Part shown: one piece after another, positions 27,743-38,178 of the stretch
How positions within the stretch are numbered: position 1 is the first letter of the stretch
Layout of the letters: each line of letters starts with the position of its first letter
Source of the DNA: Burkholderiaceae bacterium
Lineage (GTDB): Bacteria; Pseudomonadota; Gammaproteobacteria; Burkholderiales; Burkholderiaceae_C
Assembly (NCBI GenBank): GCA_965284495.1
Contig: OZ260105.1
Span: 260,049-324,048 of the forward strand
Direction of reading: 5' to 3'
Length of the DNA: 64,000 nucleotides
Made by a program: the position numbers and the translations under genes
Notes under the pieces: model-generated
The model's database searches: none
Told to the model about the DNA's origin: nothing
The model's input: the letters and a program-made list of their open reading frames with translations, nothing else

Positions 27743-30190
27743 TCAAACACGCAGCTTAGCGCCCGTGCGCTGTGCCAATTGACCCACGACCGCTTGCACA
27801 GCAGCATCAATTTCGGCCTCCGTCAGGGTAGCGTCTTCGCTGCCCAGCGTCAGGCGCACAGCCAGGCTCTTTTCGCCTTGCGCCAATCCGCCCGAAGGTG
27901 CAACCTCACCCGCGCGCAAAGCCTTAGGTCGGTACACATCGAACAGCACAGCTGCACGCAGCATGGTGCCCGGCACGGCCGCACGCACGGACGCCATGAT
28001 CTCGGCATGGGTGACACGCTCGGCCACCACCATAGCGAGATCGCGTTCAACCGCTTGGTGCTTGGCCACAGGTGTGAACTCTGGCACTACCCGCAGCAGT
28101 ACCGCGTCCAATTCGAGTTCGAACATGACCGGAGCCTGCGGCAGATCCCAGGACTGGCGCCACTGTGGATGCAACTCGCCCACAAAACCGATGGCACGCC
28201 CGTCCAGCAGCACGTGCGCGCAGCGGCCGGGGTGCATCGCTGGATGGGTGGCGGGCTCGAAGGTGGCGTTCAACGGAGCCAACAAGGCCTCTACGTCACC
28301 CTTCACATCAAAAAAGTCGATGCCCTGATCTTTGCGGCCCCACTGCAGCGCGTCGTTCGGCCCGTACGCCAACCCGGATACGCGCATGGGTTGGTCAAAA
28401 CCCTCCACCGTGGTGTCAGTATTGCTCACGCTGGCGTCGCGCAAGAACACACGCCCCAGCTCGAACACACGCACACGCTCTGCCTTACGGTCGAGGTTGA
28501 ACTTCAAAACCTGTAGCAATGACCCCAGCAATGTCGAGCGCATGACGCTCATTTGGCTTGCAATGGGGTTGAGCAGCTTGATGGGTTGCGCATTGGCAGC
28601 CAGTTCGTGCTCCCAACGCTCTTCCACAAAACTGAAGTTGATCGTCTCCTGGTACCCCAGACCTGCCAGCGAACGGCGCACCGCAAACGGGCTGCGCGTG
28701 GCTTCGAGCGCCAGCTTGGGGCTAATGGGGGCCAGCGGCGGCGTAGTGGGCAAGTTGTTGTAGCCCACCATCCGCGCGACTTCTTCGATCAGATCTTCTT
28801 CGATCGTGAGGTCAAAACGGTAGGCTGGTGGCACGACGGTGAGGGTGCCCTCGCCCTGCGCCACAGTAAGCCCGAGGCGCTCGAGCGCATCCAGGCACTG
28901 CGCCTGCGTCAGCGGCATGCCAATCACCTTGGCAGCGCGTGCGACACGCAACGTGACAGGCTTCGTTTCTGGCAGGTTGACCACTTGGTCATCCATGGGG
29001 CCACACAGGGTGTCGGGCGTGCCGCAGATATCCATGACGAGCTGCGTGATGCGCTCGATGTGCTCCACCGTGAGGCTCGGGTCCACACCCCGCTCGAAGC
29101 GATGGCCCGCGTCGGTAGAGAAATTGAAGCGGCGCGAGCGGCCTGCTACCGCCTTCGGCCACCAGAAGGCTGCTTCGATGTAGATGTGTTTCGTGTCGTC
29201 CGACACAGCCGTGGCGTCCCCCCCCATGATGCCGGCAAGCGACTCCACCTGAACGTCGTCGGCGATCACTCCCACTTTGTCGTCCAAAGTCACGGTCGTG
29301 CCATTGAGCAGCTTGAGTTGCTCGCCGGGCTTGCCCCAGCGCACATCCAGACCCCCGTGGATCTTGTCCAGATCAAAAATATGCGATGGGCGGCCCAGCT
29401 CAAACATCACGTAGTTCGAGATGTCTACCAGCGGTGACACGCCACGCTGACCGCAGCGGGCCAGGCGATCCAACATCCACTGCGGGGTGGCTGCACGCGT
29501 GTTCACGTTGCGCACAATGCGACCCGAGAAGCGTCCGCACAGGTCGGTCGCGCTCACCTTCACGGCCAGCTTGTCAGGCAGCTGCGCAACTACAGCGGGG
29601 AAAGACGGCTGCTGCAGGGGGGCGCCTGTGAGTGCAGACACTTCCCGCGCGATGCCGTACACGCTGAGGCAATGCGCCAGATTGGGCGTGAGCTTCAACG
29701 TGAACAGCGTGTCGTCCAGGTTCAGGTGCGCACGGATATCCTGGCCGACGGGCGCGGAGGCATCCAGCTCCAGCAAACCACCATGGTCTTCCGACAATTT
29801 GAGTTCGCGGGCCGAGCACAACATGCCCTGGCTTTCCACACCGCGCAGTTTGCCCACCTTGATGAGGAAGGGCTTGCCGTCTTCACCTGGTGGCAGTTCG
29901 GCGCCCACCATGGCACACGGCACCTTGATACCCACGCGGGCATTCGGCGCGCCGCAGACGATGTTGAGCAAAGCGCCCTGCCCTACATCGACCTGGCACA
30001 CGCGCAGACGGTCGGCATCGGGGTGTTGCACTGCCTCTTTGATCTCGCCCACAACGATGCGGGTAAACGGCGGCGCCACGGGCCGCAGTTCTTCGACCTC
30101 CAGACCCGCCATGGTCAGCGTGTCGGCCAGTTCTTGGGTGGTCAGCGGTGGATTGCAGAATTCGCGCAACCAGGACTCAGGGAATTGCAT
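27743..30190 (-). CDS. pheT: Phenylalanyl-tRNA synthetase beta
   Basis: [34 protein letters not shown]. Confidence 0.97.
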
Positions 30191-30210
30191 AGGAAACTTC
30201 TTTGGCGTTA

Positions 30211-30255
30211 GCTCTTAAAAATATAGCTGGCTGCGCTTTTCAGTAAACGTTTTCA
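30211..30255 (-). repeat. Family A repeat copy (degenerate)
   Basis: GCTCT-N7-ATAGC-TGG-CTGCGCTT-N7-AACGTTTT on + strand. Confidence 0.65.
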
Positions 30256-30286
30256 ATATCAAATAGCATTGAAATCCAATGAAATA

Positions 30287-30310
30287 AAGCGCTAGCAGCT
30301 CACTTTTTTG
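30287..30310 (+). repeat. Family A half copy
   Basis: AAGCGCTAGCAGCT. Confidence 0.65.
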
Positions 30311-30312
30311 CG

Positions 30313-31365
30313 TTACTGAAACTGCGACAGGAAGCGGATGTCGCCATCAAAGAACAAACGCAGATCGTTGACGCCGTAGCGCAGCATGGTCAGGCGGTCA
30401 GGCCCCATGCCGAACGCAAAGCCGATGTAATTTTCGGGGTCAAGGCCCATATTGCGCACCACATTGGGGTGCACTTGGCCCGAACCCGCCACTTCCAGCC
30501 AGCGACCTGCCAGCGGGCCGGTCTGGAACTGGATGTCGATCTCGGCGCTGGGCTCGGTGAAGGGGAAGAAGCTGGGGCGAAAGCGCAGCACCAGATCGTC
30601 GCTTTCAAAGAACGTGCGGCAAAAATCCGTGAAGATGACCTTCAGATCCTTGAAGCTCACGTTCTCGCCAATCCACAGGCCTTCGCACTGGTGAAACATG
30701 GGCGAGTGTGTCGCGTCGCTGTCCACACGGTATGTGCGGCCGGGCGCAATGACGCGAATCTCGGGCATGGGCTGGCCCGCATCTAAAGCAGCGCGGTGCT
30801 TTTTGACATGCTGCACCGCATGGCGGATCTGCATCGGGCTGGTGTGCGTGCGCAGCAGATTGGGGGCGGTGGCAGTGCCGCCCTCCACATAAAACGTGTC
30901 GTGCATGGATCGCGCAGGGTGGTCCTCGGGCGTATTCAGTGCGGTGAAATTGAACCAGTCGGTCTCGATCTCGGGGCCCTGGGCCACGTCAAAACCCATG
31001 GAGCCAAAGATGCCCTCGATGCGTTCGAGCGTGAGCGACACAGGGTGCAGACCGCCCTGACCGCGCTGGCGGCCCGGCAAGCTCACGTCGAGCGCCTCGG
31101 CCTTGAGTTGTACCTGCAACTCGGCATCGGCCAAGGCTTGGCGCCGGGCCGTCAATGCGGCTTCAATGGCTTGCTTGGTGACGTTGATGGCAGCGCCGCG
31201 GGATTTTTTTTCCTCGACGGAAAGCTGCGCCATGCCCTTCATGAGCTCGGTCACGCGGCCCGACTTGCCGAGAAACTGCGCCTTGGCATTTTCCAGATCA
31301 GCAGGGGTGGCGCTTTGGGCAAACAGTTGCGTCGCGCTTTCGACCAGGGAATCCAACTCGTTCAT
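30313..31365 (-). CDS. pheS: Phenylalanyl-tRNA synthetase alpha
   Basis: [29 protein letters not shown]. Confidence 0.97.
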
Positions 31366-31402
31366 ATCGACTCTTGAAAATGAACAAGGGCTAGTGCCTT
31401 TT

Positions 31403-31452
31403 CAAGCTCTAGCCCTTGTTGTTATTGCGCAAGAAGCTATCCAAAAGATAGC
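31403..31452 (+). repeat. Family A repeat copy; its left arm also forms a 12-bp hairpin with 31383-31394
   Basis: CTAGCCCTT-N7-TTGCGCAAG-AA-GCTAT-N7-ATAGC; AACAAGGGCTAG/CTAGCCCTTGTT. Confidence 0.75.
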
Positions 31453-31466
31453 TTCTCATCGTGAAC

Positions 31467-31826
31467 TCAAGCAGCCAGCTTGGCCTTGACTTGGTTGACG
31501 ATGCTGCCAAAGGCAGCCTTGTCGTGCACTGCGAGGTCGGCCAGCATCTTGCGGTCGATCTCGATGGATGCCTTCTTCAGGCCGTTGGCGAACTGGCTGT
31601 AGGTCAGGCCCAGTTCACGGGCAGCGGCGTTGATACGGGCGATCCACAACTGGCGGAACACGCGCTTCTTGGTGCGGCGGTCACGGTAGGCATATTGCCC
31701 AGCCTTCATTACCGCCTGTTTGGCGATACGGTAGACATTACCGCGGCGACCACGGAAACCCTTAGCGAGGGCGAGAACTTTCTTGTGACGGGCACGGGCC
31801 GTTACACCACGTTTGACGCGAGGCAT
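31467..31826 (-). CDS. rplT: 50S ribosomal protein L20
   Basis: [16 protein letters not shown]. Confidence 0.98.
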
Positions 31827-31852
31827 ATTAAATCTCCTTGTTCGTCAGTAAA

Positions 31853-32056
31853 TTAAACGCCCATACCGGGCAGCATCTGTGAAATCGAGGCCATATTGGT
31901 CTCGTGCACAGCGACTGCACCACGCAGGTGGCGCTTGTTCTTGGTGGTCTTCTTGGTCAAGATGTGACGCTTGAAGGCTTGACCGCGCTTGACGGTGCCA
32001 CCGGGACGAACGCGGAAACGTTTTTTCGCGCTGCTCTTGGTCTTCATTTTGGGCAT
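31853..32056 (-). CDS. rpmI: 50S ribosomal protein L35
   Basis: [14 protein letters not shown]. Confidence 0.98.
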
Positions 32057-32236
32057 GTGAATGCTCCTTTTCGTTGTGCTCGTGAGGCGTTTGCAAACCG
32101 ATCTGCAAACTTGTTGGCCCCGAGCCACTTTTATCGAAGGGCTTTCGCCCCTCGTTCGACAATGCCAAAGCACCGTCTCTGACCGTTCCACCCTCGCAGG
32201 CGGACCGATCAAATTCTCAAATCAATTGACTCAACC

Positions 32237-32839
32237 TCAAGCAGCGCTGCCTGCGGACGACGCGCCTTCCGCAGCGGGCTTCGCAGCGGAGGGCTTTTTA
32301 CGGCCGGGGGCAATCATCATGATCATCTGGCGGCCTTCCAGCTTGGGAAACTGCTCGATGAGGATGGTGTCGCCCAGTTCATCGCGAATGCGATTGAGCA
32401 GGGCCAGTCCCAATTCCTGGTGCGTGATTTCACGGCCGCGGAACCGCAACGTGATCTTGCACTTGTCACCATCCGCCAGAAAGCGGCGGATGTTGCGCAT
32501 CTTGATGTTGTAGTCGCCATCGTCCGTACCGGGCCGGAACTTGACTTCCTTGATCTCGATGACCGTTTGCTTGGCCTTGGCTTCGGCAGCACGCTTTTGC
32601 TCTTGGTACTTGAACTTGCCGTAGTCCATCAAGCGGCATACGGGTGGGTTCGCTGTGGCAGCGATTTCCACCAGATCCACGTCCAACTCGCCTGCCATGC
32701 GCAGGGCTTCCATCAGACTGACAACGCCCAAAGGTTCATTCTCAGGACCGGAAAGTCGAACTTCCGGGGCCATGATTTCACGGTTCAGGCGGTGCTTGCG
32801 CTCTTCACGGTGGCGACGATCACGAAATTCAGTAGCGAT
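32237..32839 (-). CDS. infC: Translation initiation factor IF-3, non-canonical ATC start
   Basis: Frame extends upstream of the track ATG: AAGGA-N8-ATC GCT ACT GAA TTT CGT; [17 protein letters not shown]. Confidence 0.9.
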
Positions 32840-32862
32840 GGCTATCTTCCTTCAATCAAATT

Positions 32863-32915
32863 ACTACAAACTTTGTAGCTACAACCGCACAGCTGGCAAG
32901 CGCCAAAGCAAGTTT
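32863..32915 (-). repeat. Family A repeat copy (degenerate) between thrS and infC
   Basis: ACTAC-N7-GTAGC-TAC-AACCGCAC-N7-AAGCGCCAA on + strand. Confidence 0.65.
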
Positions 32916-32925
32916 TCAACAAAAA

Positions 32926-34845
32926 TCAGGCTTTGGTGGCGATGTCTTGGGCGATCAGCTCAGCGAACGCTTCAACGGACATCACGCCGAGGTCACGATT
33001 GCCCCGGCCGCGCACTGCGACGGCTCCTGCGGCCTTTTCCTTGTCGCCCGCGACGAGGATGTACGGCAGCTTTTGCAACGAATGCTCACGTATTTTATAC
33101 GTAATCTTCTCATTGCGCAGATCGACCGCCACCCTAAGGTCTTGATTCGGCAGCGCTTTTTGCAGTTTTTCAGCAATTTCGCGACAGTAATCGGCCTGTG
33201 CGTCCGTGATGTTCAGCACCGCCACCTGCACCGGAGCGAGCCAAGCGGGGAACGCTCCCGCGTAGTGCTCGATCAACATGCCGATGAAACGCTCCATGCT
33301 GCCTACGGTGGCGCGGTGCAGCATCAGGGGGCGCTTGCGGCTGCCGTCCTCGGCCACGTATTCGGCGTCCAGGCGTTCGGGCAGGTTGGGGTCAATCTGC
33401 ATCGTGCCGCACTGCCACTGCCGTCCCAGCGCGTCCTTCAGCGTGTACTCGATCTTGGGGCCGTAGAACGCACCCTCGCCTTCGGCGATCTCAAATTCAC
33501 ACCCTGAATGGCGCAGGCCATCCATCAGCGCCTTCTCGGCGCGGTCCCACGACTCATCCGTGCCGATGCGCGCCTCAGGCCGCGTGGCCACCTTGTAGAT
33601 GATGTTGGTGAAACCAAAGTCCTTGTAGACCTTCTGTACCAGCGCCGTGTAGTTGGCGCACTCTTCCAACACCTGCTCTTCGGTGCAGAAGATGTGACCA
33701 TCGTCCTGCGTGAAGCCGCGCACGCGCATGATGCCGTGCAGGCCGCCGGTGGGCTCGTTGCGGTGGCAGGCACCAAATTCACCGTAGCGCAGCGGCAGGT
33801 CGCGGTAGCTCTTGATGCCCTGCTTGTAAATGAGAACGTGACCCGGGCAGTTCATCGGCTTGAGCGCGTACTCGCGTTTTTCCGATTCGGTCGTGAACAT
33901 GTTGTCGCGGTACTTGTCCCAGTGACCCGTCTTTTCCCACAGGCTCTTGTCCAGGATCTGCGGACCCTTGACCTCTTGGTAGCCGTTGTTGCGGTACACG
34001 CGGCGCATGTACTGCTCCACTTCCTGCCACAGCGCCCAGCCTTTTGGGTGCCAAAAAACGGTACCGGGTGAATGCTCGTCCATGTGGAACAAGTCCAGCT
34101 CCCGACCCAGCTTGCGGTGGTCGCGCTTTTCCGCCTCTTCCAGCATGGTGAGGTACTGCTGCAGCTCTTCCTTGGACGTCCAGGCGGTTCCGTAGATGCG
34201 CTGAAGCATCTCGTTGCGGTGGTCGCCGCGCCAGTAGGCGCCTGCAACCTTCATCAGCTTGAAGAACTTGAGCTTGCCCGTGCTCGGTACGTGGGGGCCG
34301 CGGCACAGGTCCTCAAAATTACCCTCGCGGTACAAGCTCACGTCTTCATTGCTGGGGATGCTGGCAATGATCTCAGCCTTGTAGTGCTCGCCTTGCGCCT
34401 TGAAATGAGCCACGGCCTCATCGCGCGGCAGCACGCGGCGCACCACGGGCTCATCCTTGGCTGCCAGCTCGGTCATGCGCTTTTCAATGGCCACCAAGTC
34501 TTCAGGCGTGAAGGGGCGCTTGTAAGCAAAGTCGTAGAAAAAACCGTTTTCGATCACCGGGCCGATGGTCACCTGCGCCTCGGGGAACAGCTCCTTGACG
34601 GCGTAGGCCAACAAGTGAGCGGTGGAGTGGCGAATGACCTCCAGACCATCCGCATCCTTGGCCGTGATGATCGACAGCGGGCTGTCCGCCGTGATCTGGT
34701 AGCTGGTGTCCACCACTTTGCCATCGATCTTGCCTGCCAGGGCCGCCTTGGCCAGGCCAGCGCCAATGGAGGCAGCCACTTCGGCCACGGTGACAGGGCC
34801 GGGAAATTCGCGTTGCGAGCCGTCGGGGAGCGTGATGTGAATCAT
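32926..34845 (-). CDS. thrS: Threonyl-tRNA synthetase
   Basis: [39 protein letters not shown]. Confidence 0.98.
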
Positions 34846-34915
34846 GGGAGTAACTCTTTCTTTTTCAATCGTGCGATCGGTGATCGTGCAATGGGAGCGG
34901 GCACGCGCCAGGCCC

Positions 34916-34949
34916 AAAAACAAAAAAGCGCGGAACGGGTCCGCGCTTT
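34916..34949 (-). terminator. Attenuator terminator in the thrS leader
   Basis: AAAGCGCGGA-CCCGT-TCCGCGCTTT followed by TTTGTTTTT on the - strand. Confidence 0.85.
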
Positions 34950-34992
34950 CTGGAAGAGGTGTGCAATCTCGTGCAGGCGCGAACAGCCAGCC

Positions 34993-35034
34993 TTAGCGGC
35001 CGGTAAACATCTCCGATGTAGTTCGCGGTGTCAT
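34993..35034 (-). CDS. Putative Thr-rich leader peptide MTPRTTSEMFTGR
   Basis: 13 codons, 4 Thr (ACA, ACT, ACA, ACC); GAAAGG upstream; overlaps attenuator region 1. Confidence 0.75.
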   Translation of the reverse strand: MTPRTTSEMFTGR

Positions 35035-35094
35035 AACCAGATTGCCTTTCTCGCTCTTGTGCAGTGAATTTGCTCGCATTTTAACCCTGCCGCC

Positions 35095-35128
35095 AACAAA
35101 AAAGCCCGAAGCAGCGGCTTCGGGCTTT
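35095..35128 (-). terminator. aceA terminator
   Basis: AAAGCCCGAAGC-N4-GCTTCGGGCTTT followed by T-run on the - strand. Confidence 0.85.
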
Positions 35129-35177
35129 CGTCCGGTGGATTTTGCGCCACACCCAAGCGGCGCAAAAGTCACGCAGA

Positions 35178-36509
35178 TCAGTGGAACTGCTCTTCTTCGG
35201 TCGAACCCGTCAGGGCCTTCACGGAGGACGAACCACCCTGGATCACCGTGGTCACGTCGTCGAAGTAGCCTGCGCCCACTTCCTGCTGGTGCGACACAAA
35301 CGTGTAGCCCTTGTCGCGTGCTGCAAATTCTGGCTCTTGCACCATGTTCACGTAATGCTTCATGCCTTCGCCGTTGGCGTATGCATGGGCGAACTGGAAC
35401 GTGTTGAACCAGTTGATATGGATACCGGCCAGCGTGATGAACTGGTACTTGTAGCCCAGTGCCGACAGGTCTTCCTGGAAGGACGCGATCTGCGTGTCGT
35501 TCAAATTCTTCTTCCAGTTGAACGAAGGTGAGCAGTTGTACGACAGCAGCTTGCCAGGGCAGGCAGCGTGCACAGCCTGGGCAAACTCACGGGCAAAGCC
35601 GATGTCTGGCACGCCGGTTTCGCACCACACCAGGTCGGCGTAGGGGGCGTAGGCCACGCCACGGCTGATGGCTTGCTCCAGGCCGTTCTTGACGCGGTAG
35701 AAGCCTTCTTGCGTGCGCTCGCCGGTCAGGAAAGGCTTGTCGTTGGCGTCGTGGTCAGACGTGATCAGGTTGGCGGCTTCGGCATCGGTGCGGGCCAGCA
35801 CGATAGTGGACACGCCCATCACGTCGGCTGCAAAACGGGCGGAAATCAGCTTTTCGCAGGCTTCATGCGTAGGCACCAGCACCTTGCCACCCATGTGGCC
35901 GCACTTCTTTACGGCAGCCAGCTGGTCTTCAAAGTGAACACCTGCAGCGCCCGACTGGATCATGTTCTTCATCAGTTCGAAGGCGTTCAAGACGCCGCCG
36001 AAACCAGCTTCTGCATCGGCCACGATGGGCAGGAAGTAGTCGATGAATTCCTTGTCGCCGGGGTTGATGCCACGGCCCCACTGGATTTCGTCAGCGCGCT
36101 TGAAGGTGTTGTTGATGCGGCGAACCATGGTGGGCACCGAGTCATACGCATACAGCGACTGGTCGGGGTACATGGTTTCGGACGTGTTGCCGTCCGCGGC
36201 GACTTGCCAGCCCGACAGGTACACAGCCTCCAGGCCAGCCTTGGCTTGCTGCATGGCTTGACCAGCAGAGATGGCGCCGAATGCGTTGACGTAGCCCTTC
36301 TTGGCGCCGCCGTTGATCTTGTCCCACAGCTTTTCAGCGCCGCGCTTGGCCAAGGTGTGCTCAATCGGCAGCGAGCCGCGCAGACGAACCACGTCGGCAG
36401 CGGAGTAACCGCGCTTCACACCCTTCCAGCGGGGGTTCTGGGCCCAGTCTTTTTCCAGGGCGGCAATTTGCTGTTCACGGCTCAGTTGTTCGTTGAGAGA
36501 TTGGGGCAT
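35178..36509 (-). CDS. aceA: Isocitrate lyase
   Basis: KKCGHMGGK active-site loop, [20 protein letters not shown]. Confidence 0.98.
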
Positions 36510-36578
36510 GAGGTCACTCCAGAAGGTTGGTTGAAAACGCCGGGCTGCTTGTGTGCTGCCCTTGGGGACAACTTTAAG

Positions 36579-36620
36579 TCTTCTATAAGAGTTGCACAAG
36601 CTCTTATGTCTTATAGAAGA
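36579..36620. promoter_or_regulatory. Operator upstream of aceA (12-bp inverted repeat; SdhR-like GntR box)
   Basis: TCTTCTATAAGA-N18-TCTTATAGAAGA; contains TCTTATGTCTTATAGAAGA at 36602-36620. Confidence 0.65.
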
Positions 36621-36780
36621 GATAAATTTTTCCCTTTAAAAACAAGCACTTAACCACGCAATTTCTCAATACAGAAATTGATTTCTCATATCGAGAAAAA
36701 ATGCGGCAATGCAACATCTATCGCATTCCGCATTGCAAAAACGTGTTTTTGTATTGTGAGAAAAAACACGGGCAAGCCGC

Positions 36781-37185
36781 CTACCCTGCCTTGACCCAAT
36801 CACCATGCGCAATACGCTCGGCAGACTCCACATACCGAGGGTTGATTTCATACACGAGGCACGGCGTGGCATGACCTTGCACGTCGACCATCACTTCGCG
36901 TTTGCTGTACTCGTCTGTGGGGTTCTCCCCAAGGTCTTCGATGCCATCCAGAACGGCCTCCAGAGCGGAGTCAATGGCATACACCTCGCCCTGCACCCAC
37001 TGGTCACCGCCCAAAGTCATACCGGGATAAGGCCCCAGGTGATAAAGAATGCCGGCGACCTGCGCCAGCCCCACAAACCGCGCAGCAGGCTGCAACCGCG
37101 TAATGTCGTTGCTGCAGCCCTCGCGCAATGTGCCATACACAAACACACACCGCGGCGACTGAGGAAACTGGGATTCATCGGGCAT
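36781..37185 (-). CDS. Gamma-glutamylcyclotransferase (AIG2-like)
   Basis: VFVYGTLREG, YPG, V.GEVY, LDGIE. Confidence 0.9.
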   Translation of the reverse strand: MPDESQFPQSPRCVFVYGTLREGCSNDITRLQPAARFVGLAQVAGILYHLGPYPGMTLGGDQWVQGEVYAIDSALEAVLDGIEDLGENPTDEYSKREVMVDVQGHATPCLVYEINPRYVESAERIAHGDWVKAG

Positions 37186-37221
37186 GATGCGCACTCTTTT
37201 TGTTGACCAGCGCCCAGTCTA

Positions 37222-38178
37222 GTGAAACCGCCGAACCGTCTCTTCGCCTATGCGTGCCTCGCGCTCAGCATGTCACTCGTGGGCTGCTACGTAGCGCTTT
37301 CCAAGCCGCTGGCGGCAGTGCTACCCGTGTTTCTGCTGGCGTGGATGCGTTTTGGCATTGGCGGGCTGGCCATGCTCCATTGGCTAAAAAAGCCGATAGA
37401 CGAACCACCCCTCACGCCGCAAACCAAACGCTTGCTGTTTCTGGAATCGTTTCTGGGCAACTTTCTGTTCACCATCTGCATGATCTATGGCGTGAGCCTG
37501 ACCGATGCCGTCTCGGCCGGTGTGACCATGGCATCGATCCCGGCAGCAGTTGCCTTGATGGGCTGGGCGTTTCTGGGCGAGCGGGTGGCGCCGCGCACGT
37601 GGGCTGCCGTGGTGTGCGCTGTAGGGGGAGTTGCCTTGTTCTCACTATCAAAACCAGAGCACACTGCGCATGCTGCACAAGCGCTAGGTGCCAAAAACAC
37701 TCAAAACATGGCATGGCTCGGTCAGTTGCTGCTGGTAGGGGCCGTGATCTGCGAAGCGGCCTATACCGTAATCGGCAAGAAGCTCACGGGAAGCCTGGGG
37801 CCCAAACGCATCACCTCGCTCATCAACCTGTGGGGGTTTGCGCTGACAACGCCTTTTGGGCTGTACCTGGCGCTGGATTTTGACTTTGCCGCGGTCGGCT
37901 GGGGCACCTGGATGCTGCTGCTTTTCTATGCCATGGCGGCCTGCATGTGGACGGTCTGGCTGTGGATGACAGGGCTCAAGGCCGTTCCGGCAGCCCAAGG
38001 TGGGGTTTTCTCGGTCATGTTGCCCGTAAGCGCGGCGCTGGTAGGCGTGCTGCTACTGGGCGAATCCCTCACCGCCATGCAACTGGTGGCGTTTGCCATC
38101 GCCCTGGCCAGCGTGTTGCTGGCCACCCTGCCCTCACGCGCTGCGATGCGTGTGGGCCGAAAGAACCGGGCGGGCTGA
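37222..38178 (+). CDS. EamA/DMT family transporter
   Basis: ~10 TM helices in two repeats; WMRFGIG, EAAYTVIGKKL. Confidence 0.85.
   Translation: MKPPNRLFAYACLALSMSLVGCYVALSKPLAAVLPVFLLAWMRFGIGGLAMLHWLKKPIDEPPLTPQTKRLLFLESFLGNFLFTICMIYGVSLTDAVSAGVTMASIPAAVALMGWAFLGERVAPRTWAAVVCAVGGVALFSLSKPEHTAHAAQALGAKNTQNMAWLGQLLLVGAVICEAAYTVIGKKLTGSLGPKRITSLINLWGFALTTPFGLYLALDFDFAAVGWGTWMLLLFYAMAACMWTVWLWMTGLKAVPAAQGGVFSVMLPVSAALVGVLLLGESLTAMQLVAFAIALASVLLATLPSRAAMRVGRKNRAG

Follow-up and report, generated by a model that had tools for sequence, protein, structure and literature searches.

The stretch upstream of thrS in the DNA analysed here (a window of 64,000 nucleotides from a Burkholderiaceae genome) is probably a classical ribosome-mediated transcription attenuator, controlling thrS by sensing the supply of charged tRNA-Thr. 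As far as sequence can tell, this reading, already put forward in the original prediction, is supported by a small upstream ORF (uORF), mutually exclusive helices, an intrinsic terminator, placement of the uORF stop codon and conservation. All features described below lie on the minus strand.

Locus and anatomy of the thrS leader

Genes of the minus strand are arranged in the order aceA (isocitrate lyase), leader, thrS, infC, rplT, pheS and pheT. The proposed regulated gene, thrS (32926-34845), was recognized by its translation as coding for threonine--tRNA ligase (NCBIfam TIGR00418, 723 bits). The window belongs to an Acidovorax, and its ThrRS shares 98% identity with the enzyme of A. facilis DSM 649. 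The leader sits in a 330-nt gap between the end of aceA (35178) and the ATG of thrS (34845). Upstream of it, at about 35125-35095, aceA has a terminator-like hairpin of its own.

From reading of the sequence, the putative -10 element of the leader/thrS promoter is TAAAAT at 35083-35078, and transcription would start near 35071, about 35-37 nt before the uORF. The position is kept in relatives: equally far 5' of the AAGAGCG block, they have TAAAAT, TAGAAT or GAAT-type hexamers; a promoter scan of the window did not call TAAAAT at 35083-35078. The 5' block AAGAGCGAGAAAGGC (35044-35058) is near-invariant across families and extends beyond the element as originally delimited. It contains what is probably the Shine-Dalgarno (SD) sequence of the uORF, AAAGG, 10 nt before AUG. 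This spacing is long, which counts against the attenuator reading. A spacer to GGTTATG whose length ranges between 4 and 6 nt shows that the block is non-coding. Variable spacer length likewise rules out an in-frame upstream extension of the uORF (KSEKGNLV-MTPR...).

The uORF MTPRTTSEMFTGR (34993-35034) consists of 13 codons, with ATG at 35034-35032 and the stop TAA at 34995-34993. It reads ATG ACA CCG CGA ACT ACA TCG GAG ATG TTT ACC GGC CGC TAA. Threonine is encoded by codons 2, 5, 6 and 11 (ACA 35031-29, ACT 35022-20, ACA 35019-17 and ACC 35004-02). The uORF that had been proposed, including its four threonine codons, was thereby confirmed base for base.

Region 1, CCGCGAACUAC (35018-35028, core CGCGAAC at 35027-35021), overlaps uORF codons 3-6. 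It is followed by a hairpin of the minimum free energy (MFE) fold, CCGGCC-GCUAA-GGCUGG (34987-35003), that holds the uORF stop within its loop. Region 2, GUUCGCGC(CUG) (34974-34984, with GTTCGCG(C) at 34984-34977), can have region 1 or region 3 as its partner. In the folded OFF state, GCCU immediately 3' of region 2 can take AGGC of the 5' block as its partner, a pairing that RNAalifold predicts. Region 3 (34939-34949) includes the terminator 5' arm AAAGCGCGGA (34949-34940) along with GCGCGGAC at 34946-34939. Region 4 (34916-34934) consists of the terminator 3' arm UCCGCGCUUU / TCCGCGCTTT (34934-34925) and the subsequent U-tract UUUUUUGUUUUU. Both regions were found by terminator scan and by folding; the scan describes a 10-bp GC-rich stem, a CCCGT loop and a T6-G-T5 run to 34916.

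The ATG of thrS is located 70 nt past the terminator U-tract. The stretch from attenuator to thrS ATG is just 11-30 nt in most other lineages, compared with 70 nt in the window. These 70 nt show no conservation outside Acidovorax. A GGGC...GCCC hairpin (GGGCCUGGCGCGUGCCC) within 34846-34915, between attenuator and thrS ATG, is kept in Acidovorax relatives only.

Alternative folds and the proposed switch

Folding recovered all three alternative structures that had been drawn, namely 1:2, 2:3 and 3:4. In the MFE structure of the whole leader, 1:2 is combined with the terminator. The pairing of CGCGAAC with GTTCGCG(C) is present there at exactly the positions expected; the energy of the 1:2 domain, which encloses a small hairpin as well as the stop-codon hairpin, is -22.6 kcal/mol (z = -2.4). 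The 10-bp terminator with its U-tract, likewise anticipated and retrieved by the terminator scan, folds at -17.7 kcal/mol (z = -4.6). Masking of region 1 in the absence of region 4 makes the expected 2:3 antiterminator (about -16 kcal/mol) the MFE structure; in it, the helix GUUCGCGC:GCGCGGAC is extended by CUG:CAG. With region 4 present, the terminator is narrowly favoured over 2:3. The terminator has an equilibrium advantage of about 1.7 kcal/mol over the antiterminator, so that the switch has to work kinetically. As modelled, the three states are energetically balanced in the manner of kinetic attenuators.

Pairing outside regions 1 to 4 is less consistent. GCAAUCU from the spacer after the SD block pairs with AGAUUGC (34970-34964) in the MFE fold of the window, and across 24 relatives only 49% of cells of this long-range helix pair. 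Duplex energies of the 5' block with downstream pyrimidine tracts are on average no better than those of shuffles (mean z = -0.66); in some lineages, e.g. Massilia and Noviherbaspirillum, this pairing is strong.

The following course of events can be proposed. A ribosome would load on the leader and translate MTPRTT... If Thr-tRNA-Thr is scarce, owing to threonine starvation or low ThrRS activity, the ribosome would stall with codon 2, 5 or 6 in its A site. These codons are located within or beside region 1, and region 1 (CCGCGAACUAC), together with the SD side of the leader, would be covered by the stalled ribosome. At 26 nt or more past the leading edge of the ribosome, region 2 (GUUCGCGC) would stay free and capture region 3 (GCGCGGAC) once the latter is made. 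Formation of 2:3 would block the terminator, and RNA polymerase would read into thrS. If Thr-tRNA-Thr is plentiful, the ribosome would reach the stop codon, found close before region 2, and occlude or unwind region 2; the 3:4 terminator would then form and transcription would end near 34917-34922. In the absence of translation, 1:2 would form, leaving 3:4 again free to terminate. Ribosome footprint sizes used for this stall geometry are general knowledge. Footprints on this leader, kinetic competition, promoter and in vivo response are components that we infer.

Threonine starvation, the signal named in the original prediction, is kept in this scheme. The quantity sensed would nevertheless be charged tRNA-Thr, and the switch would therefore report ThrRS insufficiency as well as threonine starvation. 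Sensing of this kind would give homeostatic feedback on ThrRS. One prediction is that ThrRS inhibitors or threonine limitation induce thrS in bacteria possessing the leader. Such a leader could also serve as a compact model of attenuation, having regulatory codons inside region 1 and the stop codon inside or beside region 2.

Conservation, coding signal and covariation

The thrS loci from genomes of 80 Burkholderiales species were compared. A uORF starting with MTPRT is present 120-190 nt 5' of thrS in about 55 of these 80 genomes. The shared nucleotide layout consists of AAGAGCGAGAAAGGC, 4-6 variable nt, GGUUAUGACACCGCGAACUAC and, further on, AAGCGCGG-loop-CCGCGCUUUUUU. A covariance model (R1) was built from 24 close relatives. 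Its only match in the 64-kb window (156.8 bits) spans 34921-35061, so that the element reaches further 5' than first delimited. Full-length matches directly upstream of thrS were obtained in 57 of the 80 genomes. Matching groups include Comamonadaceae, the Rubrivivax/Roseateles/Piscinibacter group, Massilia and Noviherbaspirillum; Ralstonia matches weakly.

Metagenome contigs were scanned with an exact pattern for the 21-nt uORF start, which yielded at least 120 contigs. Among the matches listed, every contig with at least 220 nt downstream (104/104) has thrS 121-190 nt after the uORF ATG, and the element is thus, among these matches, tied exclusively to thrS. Upstream of the leader, aceA, a tRNA-Val gene or some other gene is found, depending on the genome. 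To judge from these sequences, conservation of the leader is far more than expected by chance. The window sequence was also found in Logan contigs of related organisms, where metatranscriptome depth is patchy and 3' ends are not resolved. Among RNA-seq data sought for the strain and its relatives, including Paracidovorax avenae and Piscinibacter sakaiensis, no run with usable reads turned up.

Coding properties of the uORF were evaluated in an unbiased genome set of 51 distinct uORFs. Codon 1 is ATG in all of them (one further relative outside the set has GTG), codon 2 is ACA in 50, and codon 3 is CCG in 51. Codon 4 is CGA in 45 cases and CGG in six; this variation aside, region 1 is invariant in the 51 genome leaders. 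Codon 5 is ACU in 44 and ACG in seven. Threonine occupies codon 6 in 34 of the 51 uORFs (ACA 15, ACG 11, ACC 8) and codon 7 in 21. After codon 4, ACN triplets make up 152/572 (27%) in frame, compared with 12/521 (2.3%) and 14/521 (2.7%) in the other frames. The metagenome pattern fixed codons 1-6, and threonine statistics were there taken from codon 7 onward. In this part of 147 unique leaders, threonine is the commonest residue (16.6%); by position, it reaches 44% at codon 7 and 24% at codon 11 and falls to a few percent past codon 12. Most leaders have uORFs of 11-14 codons. The threonine signal is short, with 4 of 13 codons and no long run in the window and with only two threonines in some relatives.

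The leader uses rare codons (ACA, CGA, ACU, ACA), since the neighbouring genes seldom use ACA, ACU and CGA: in six of them, ACA and ACU each account for 4.8% of threonine codons, and CGA for 1.8% of arginine codons. Rare codons are a recognised hallmark of leader peptides (PMC2836559).

Codons 2-6 are under constraint as RNA, too. AACUAC pairs with GUAGU/GUU of region 2. This hexanucleotide is also the complement of GUAGU(U/C), a motif in which the uORF UAG stop is often included and which occurs in 60 of 147 leaders (12.7 expected). With codons 2, 5 and part of 6 under such constraint, threonine identity is confounded with RNA pairing. Clean evidence of coding selection is therefore provided only by variable threonine codons from position 6 on.

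Region 2 appears in relatives as CCGCGC, UCGCGC or CCGCGG at constant position. Over 147 leaders, the median distance from the first base of the stop codon to the start of region 2 is 4 nt (IQR 1-9.5), a position at which a terminating ribosome would mask it; in the window, it begins 9 nt after the uORF stop codon. In the 24 close relatives, the seven core pairs of 1:2 are invariant and paired in every sequence, and 2:3 is 96.9% paired and also invariant. Of the cells of the stop-codon hairpin, 93% pair, and three of its pairs are compensated. The figure for the terminator is 92.5%, with AU, CG or UA as top pair.

A wider set of 94 distinct sequences was aligned to the covariance model. In this set, 88.6% of cells pair (21-51% with partners slid), and changes on both sides amount to 94 cells, compared with 31.7 +/- 4.3 in shuffles, of which 0/500 reach the observed value; since alignments are fitted to the model and sequences are related, these covariation numbers overstate independence. 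Compensated pairs comprise 6/6 of the stop-codon hairpin and six of the terminator. Pairing amounts to 92% and 76% in the two segments of 1:2 and to 81% in the 2:3 helix (18-51% when slid), whose covariation is weak. In three sequences, the synonymous change CGA>CGG in codon 4 has a U>C counterpart in region 2. A pair between the base following GCGCGG of region 3 and the region-2 flank is present in 67% of leaders, compared with 42 +/- 4.6% after permutation. Conservation and covariation across Burkholderiales had been named as a check in the original prediction: threonine codons are conserved and both the stop-codon hairpin and the terminator covary, whereas 1:2 and 2:3 are conserved with little covariation. 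The latter is due to both cores being almost invariant.

Alternative explanations and related systems

We regard it as unlikely that the leader is a composite device with a second activity. In such a device, the 5' block, the MTPR codons and the GCGCGG/CCGCGC hairpin would be bound by a trans-acting factor (ThrRS or other), or the terminated leader RNA of ~150 nt would act in trans as a small RNA. The latter behaviour is described for the leader RNA rnTrpL in Sinorhizobium (PMC6614838). About a dozen lineages without the uORF (Limnohabitans, Polaromonas, some Rhodoferax) keep the AAGCGCGG-loop-CCGCGCUUUUUU hairpin (GCGCGG/CCGCGC) 11-45 nt before the thrS ATG, so that the hairpin may have a function of its own, apart from the uORF. 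The uORF-less loci are L003, L004, L016, L017, L021, L029, L031, L032, L034, L050, L058 and L067 (last ~100-145 nt before thrS). Several of them contain an inverted repeat with covarying arms around conserved GGCGTAAAAT, after which conserved AGCGTTT could pair with AAGCGC of the hairpin.

Slightly less likely again, the uORF may be a general sensor of translation status, not specific for threonine. Stalling or slow initiation at invariant MTPR(T), brought about by rare CGA/ACA/ACU codons, the Pro-Arg context, antibiotics or low ribosome capacity, would then relieve termination in an operon of translation genes. MTPRT is in fact invariant as peptide and as nucleotides, its codons are rare, and genes downstream are thrS, infC, rplT and pheST. 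However, nucleotide invariance of MTPR is explained by pairing needs with regions 2 and 3. Further, a general sensor does not agree with threonine codons that are enriched past the invariant part, with synonymous variation and in frame only, nor with linkage to thrS alone among the matches listed.

Autoregulation by a protein is an improbable explanation. Here, ThrRS or another RNA-binding protein would attach to leader or hairpin and thereby affect termination; the analogue is the E. coli thrS operator, which mimics the tRNA-Thr anticodon arm. The 5' block and terminator stem are unusually conserved for mere SD and terminator roles, the hairpin persists in lineages without uORF, and 26 of 72 hairpin loops end in GU. 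Yet the loops range from 3 to 7 nt and there is no conserved NGU in a 7-nt anticodon-like loop. CUGGUUA before AUG is no better candidate: its positions 32/33 are variable and it has no flanking stem. Frame-specific threonine enrichment is left unexplained, too. A tRNA-Thr anticodon mimic bound by ThrRS is in particular unlikely, as loops of the conserved hairpin vary in size (3-7 nt) and sequence.

It is very improbable that the element has no regulatory function and represents a constitutive partial terminator or insulator between aceA and thrS along with a chance small ORF. Retention of the hairpin alone right after aceA in uORF-less lineages would suit an insulator. On the contrary, aceA already has its own terminator, and the uORF, its frame, length and threonine codons are kept in 57/80 genomes and at least 104 metagenome contigs, whichever gene is upstream. 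Finally, a T-box-like riboswitch binding uncharged tRNA-Thr directly is effectively refuted: UGGU and ACCGCG in the leader are faintly like the T-box consensus GGGUGGNACCGCG, but there is no Rfam match (RF00230) at E <= 10 in 30000-38000, the stretch of only about 37 nt 5' of AUG leaves no room for Stem I and specifier loop, and reading-frame signals point to translation.

Among known systems, the thrS leader, read as an attenuator, resembles pheM-pheST more than the E. coli thrS operator. Enterobacterial aaRS operons controlled by attenuation comprise pheST (pheM leader) and trpS2 (bioRxiv 10.64898/2026.09.09.750475). The 1:2/2:3/3:4 logic had been ascribed to biosynthetic attenuators; it is present in the thrS leader, but it is not confined to biosynthetic operons, since pheST and trpS2 use attenuation. 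As in pheM-pheST of E. coli and Salmonella, a short leader peptide rich in the cognate residue and an intrinsic terminator precede the aaRS gene (bioRxiv 10.64898/2026.09.09.750475). Charged tRNA is sensed there, with feedback on synthetase activity, and the thrS-infC-rpmI-rplT-pheST neighbourhood is the same. Part of this parallel reportedly comes from work of Springer and Fayat. The two differ in residue (Phe there, Thr here), gene and sequence. Unlike in pheM-pheST, regulatory codons begin here at codons 2 and 5 and are directly overlapped by region 1.

As read here, the element operates in the manner of thrL or trpL. The thrL leader (Rfam RF00506, Thr_leader) shares a threonine-rich leader peptide, the 1:2/2:3/3:4 logic and a terminator. 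It differs in regulating thrABC biosynthesis in Enterobacteria and in having runs of Thr and Ile; its peptide contains 8 Thr and 4 Ile among 21 residues. In a permissive Rfam scan of 30000-38000, RF00506 gave no match on the leader, and a RyhB-like match to the leader terminator was below threshold. A sub-threshold Thr_leader match falls on the aceA terminator (35096-35169; 21.4 bits, gathering threshold 55, E = 1.8) and looks like chance resemblance of a GC hairpin with U-tract.

A thrL-thrS leader has been reported in Streptomyces lividans, where a small ORF with threonine codons upstream of thrS was interpreted as attenuator (PMC8079986). Its sequence is unrelated (MKRVRPFLETTPGFVPAR), the transcript is leaderless and there is no clear intrinsic terminator (PMC8079986), whereas the terminator described here is canonical and its family is deeply conserved. 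The translational operator of E. coli thrS and the T-box of Bacillus thrS similarly couple thrS expression to tRNA-Thr charging or ThrRS level. Their mechanisms are different: ThrRS binds at the RBS in the former, and tRNA is bound directly in the latter. An operator stem-loop of the E. coli type (7-nt loop, NGU, by the thrS RBS) is absent from the leader, where the conserved hairpin has variable loops of 3-7 nt.

If the attenuator reading is true, a large bacterial order regulates ThrRS by a third route, beside the E. coli tRNA-mimic operator and the Gram-positive T-box. This would be a clear case of convergent solutions to one homeostatic problem. No Rfam family describes the thrS leader. 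A literature search found neither a betaproteobacterial thrS attenuator nor MTPRTT; a 2010 comparison of attenuation in aaRS operons could contain such a prediction. The MTPRT leader (about 140 nt) may accordingly be seen as an unannotated, sharply defined RNA family and a candidate for Rfam and genome annotation.

Variant leaders occur in several relatives. A Polaromonas MAG (L010:2328-2472) contains a decaying copy of the leader, in which AUG is now AUA (GGCUAUAACACCGCGAAUUGG) and a U-run occurs early; region 2 and the terminator are kept. Variant uORFs are found in L060, L063 (Ralstonia), L079 (Bordetella), L062, L068, L069 and L074, their peptides being MIQAPRTTTASERQ, ..ARTTTSSPR, MLTTARTTLNTHTV, MTARTFTEV.., MRLFRTTSTGS and MLRTRFTDG. 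Most of them retain the Arg-Thr-Thr core CGAACUAC and a similar terminator, and L068 and L074 retain only CGAACU. A tRNA-Val(GAC) gene is located just upstream in Ralstonia, L068, L069 and L074, and also in L070, where no uORF was found. In Ralstonia, the terminator lies about 155 nt before thrS.

Leaders of Massilia, Noviherbaspirillum and a Burkholderiales MAG (L072, L073, L076) have no region 2 of CCGCGC type. Instead, a pyrimidine tract immediately 5' of the terminator pairs over ~15 bp with the 5' block UAAGAGCGAGAAAGG, and the uORF end (GCUAGUCG) repeats the terminator loop (GCUAGUCC). The scheme of alternative pairing thus seems to differ from that of the window.

Further observations concern genes downstream of thrS. 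No Phe-rich pheM leader of E. coli type is evident before pheS in the window. The rplT-pheS spacer (31366-31466) contains two hairpins, GAAGCUAUC/GAUAGCUUC and ACAAGGGCUAG/CUAGCCCUUGU, the second of which is followed by UCAUUUU. A 16-codon ORF (MRSYLLDSFLRNNNKG) with a single Phe is also found there. The infC frame runs 24 codons 5' of its first ATG (32773), to AUA (32845-32843) or to AUC two codons further on (both within 32837-32845), with GAAGGAAG before them. The IF3 profile match to the ORF beginning with ATG starts at profile position 13. The start codon of infC is likely to be non-canonical, as known for this gene.
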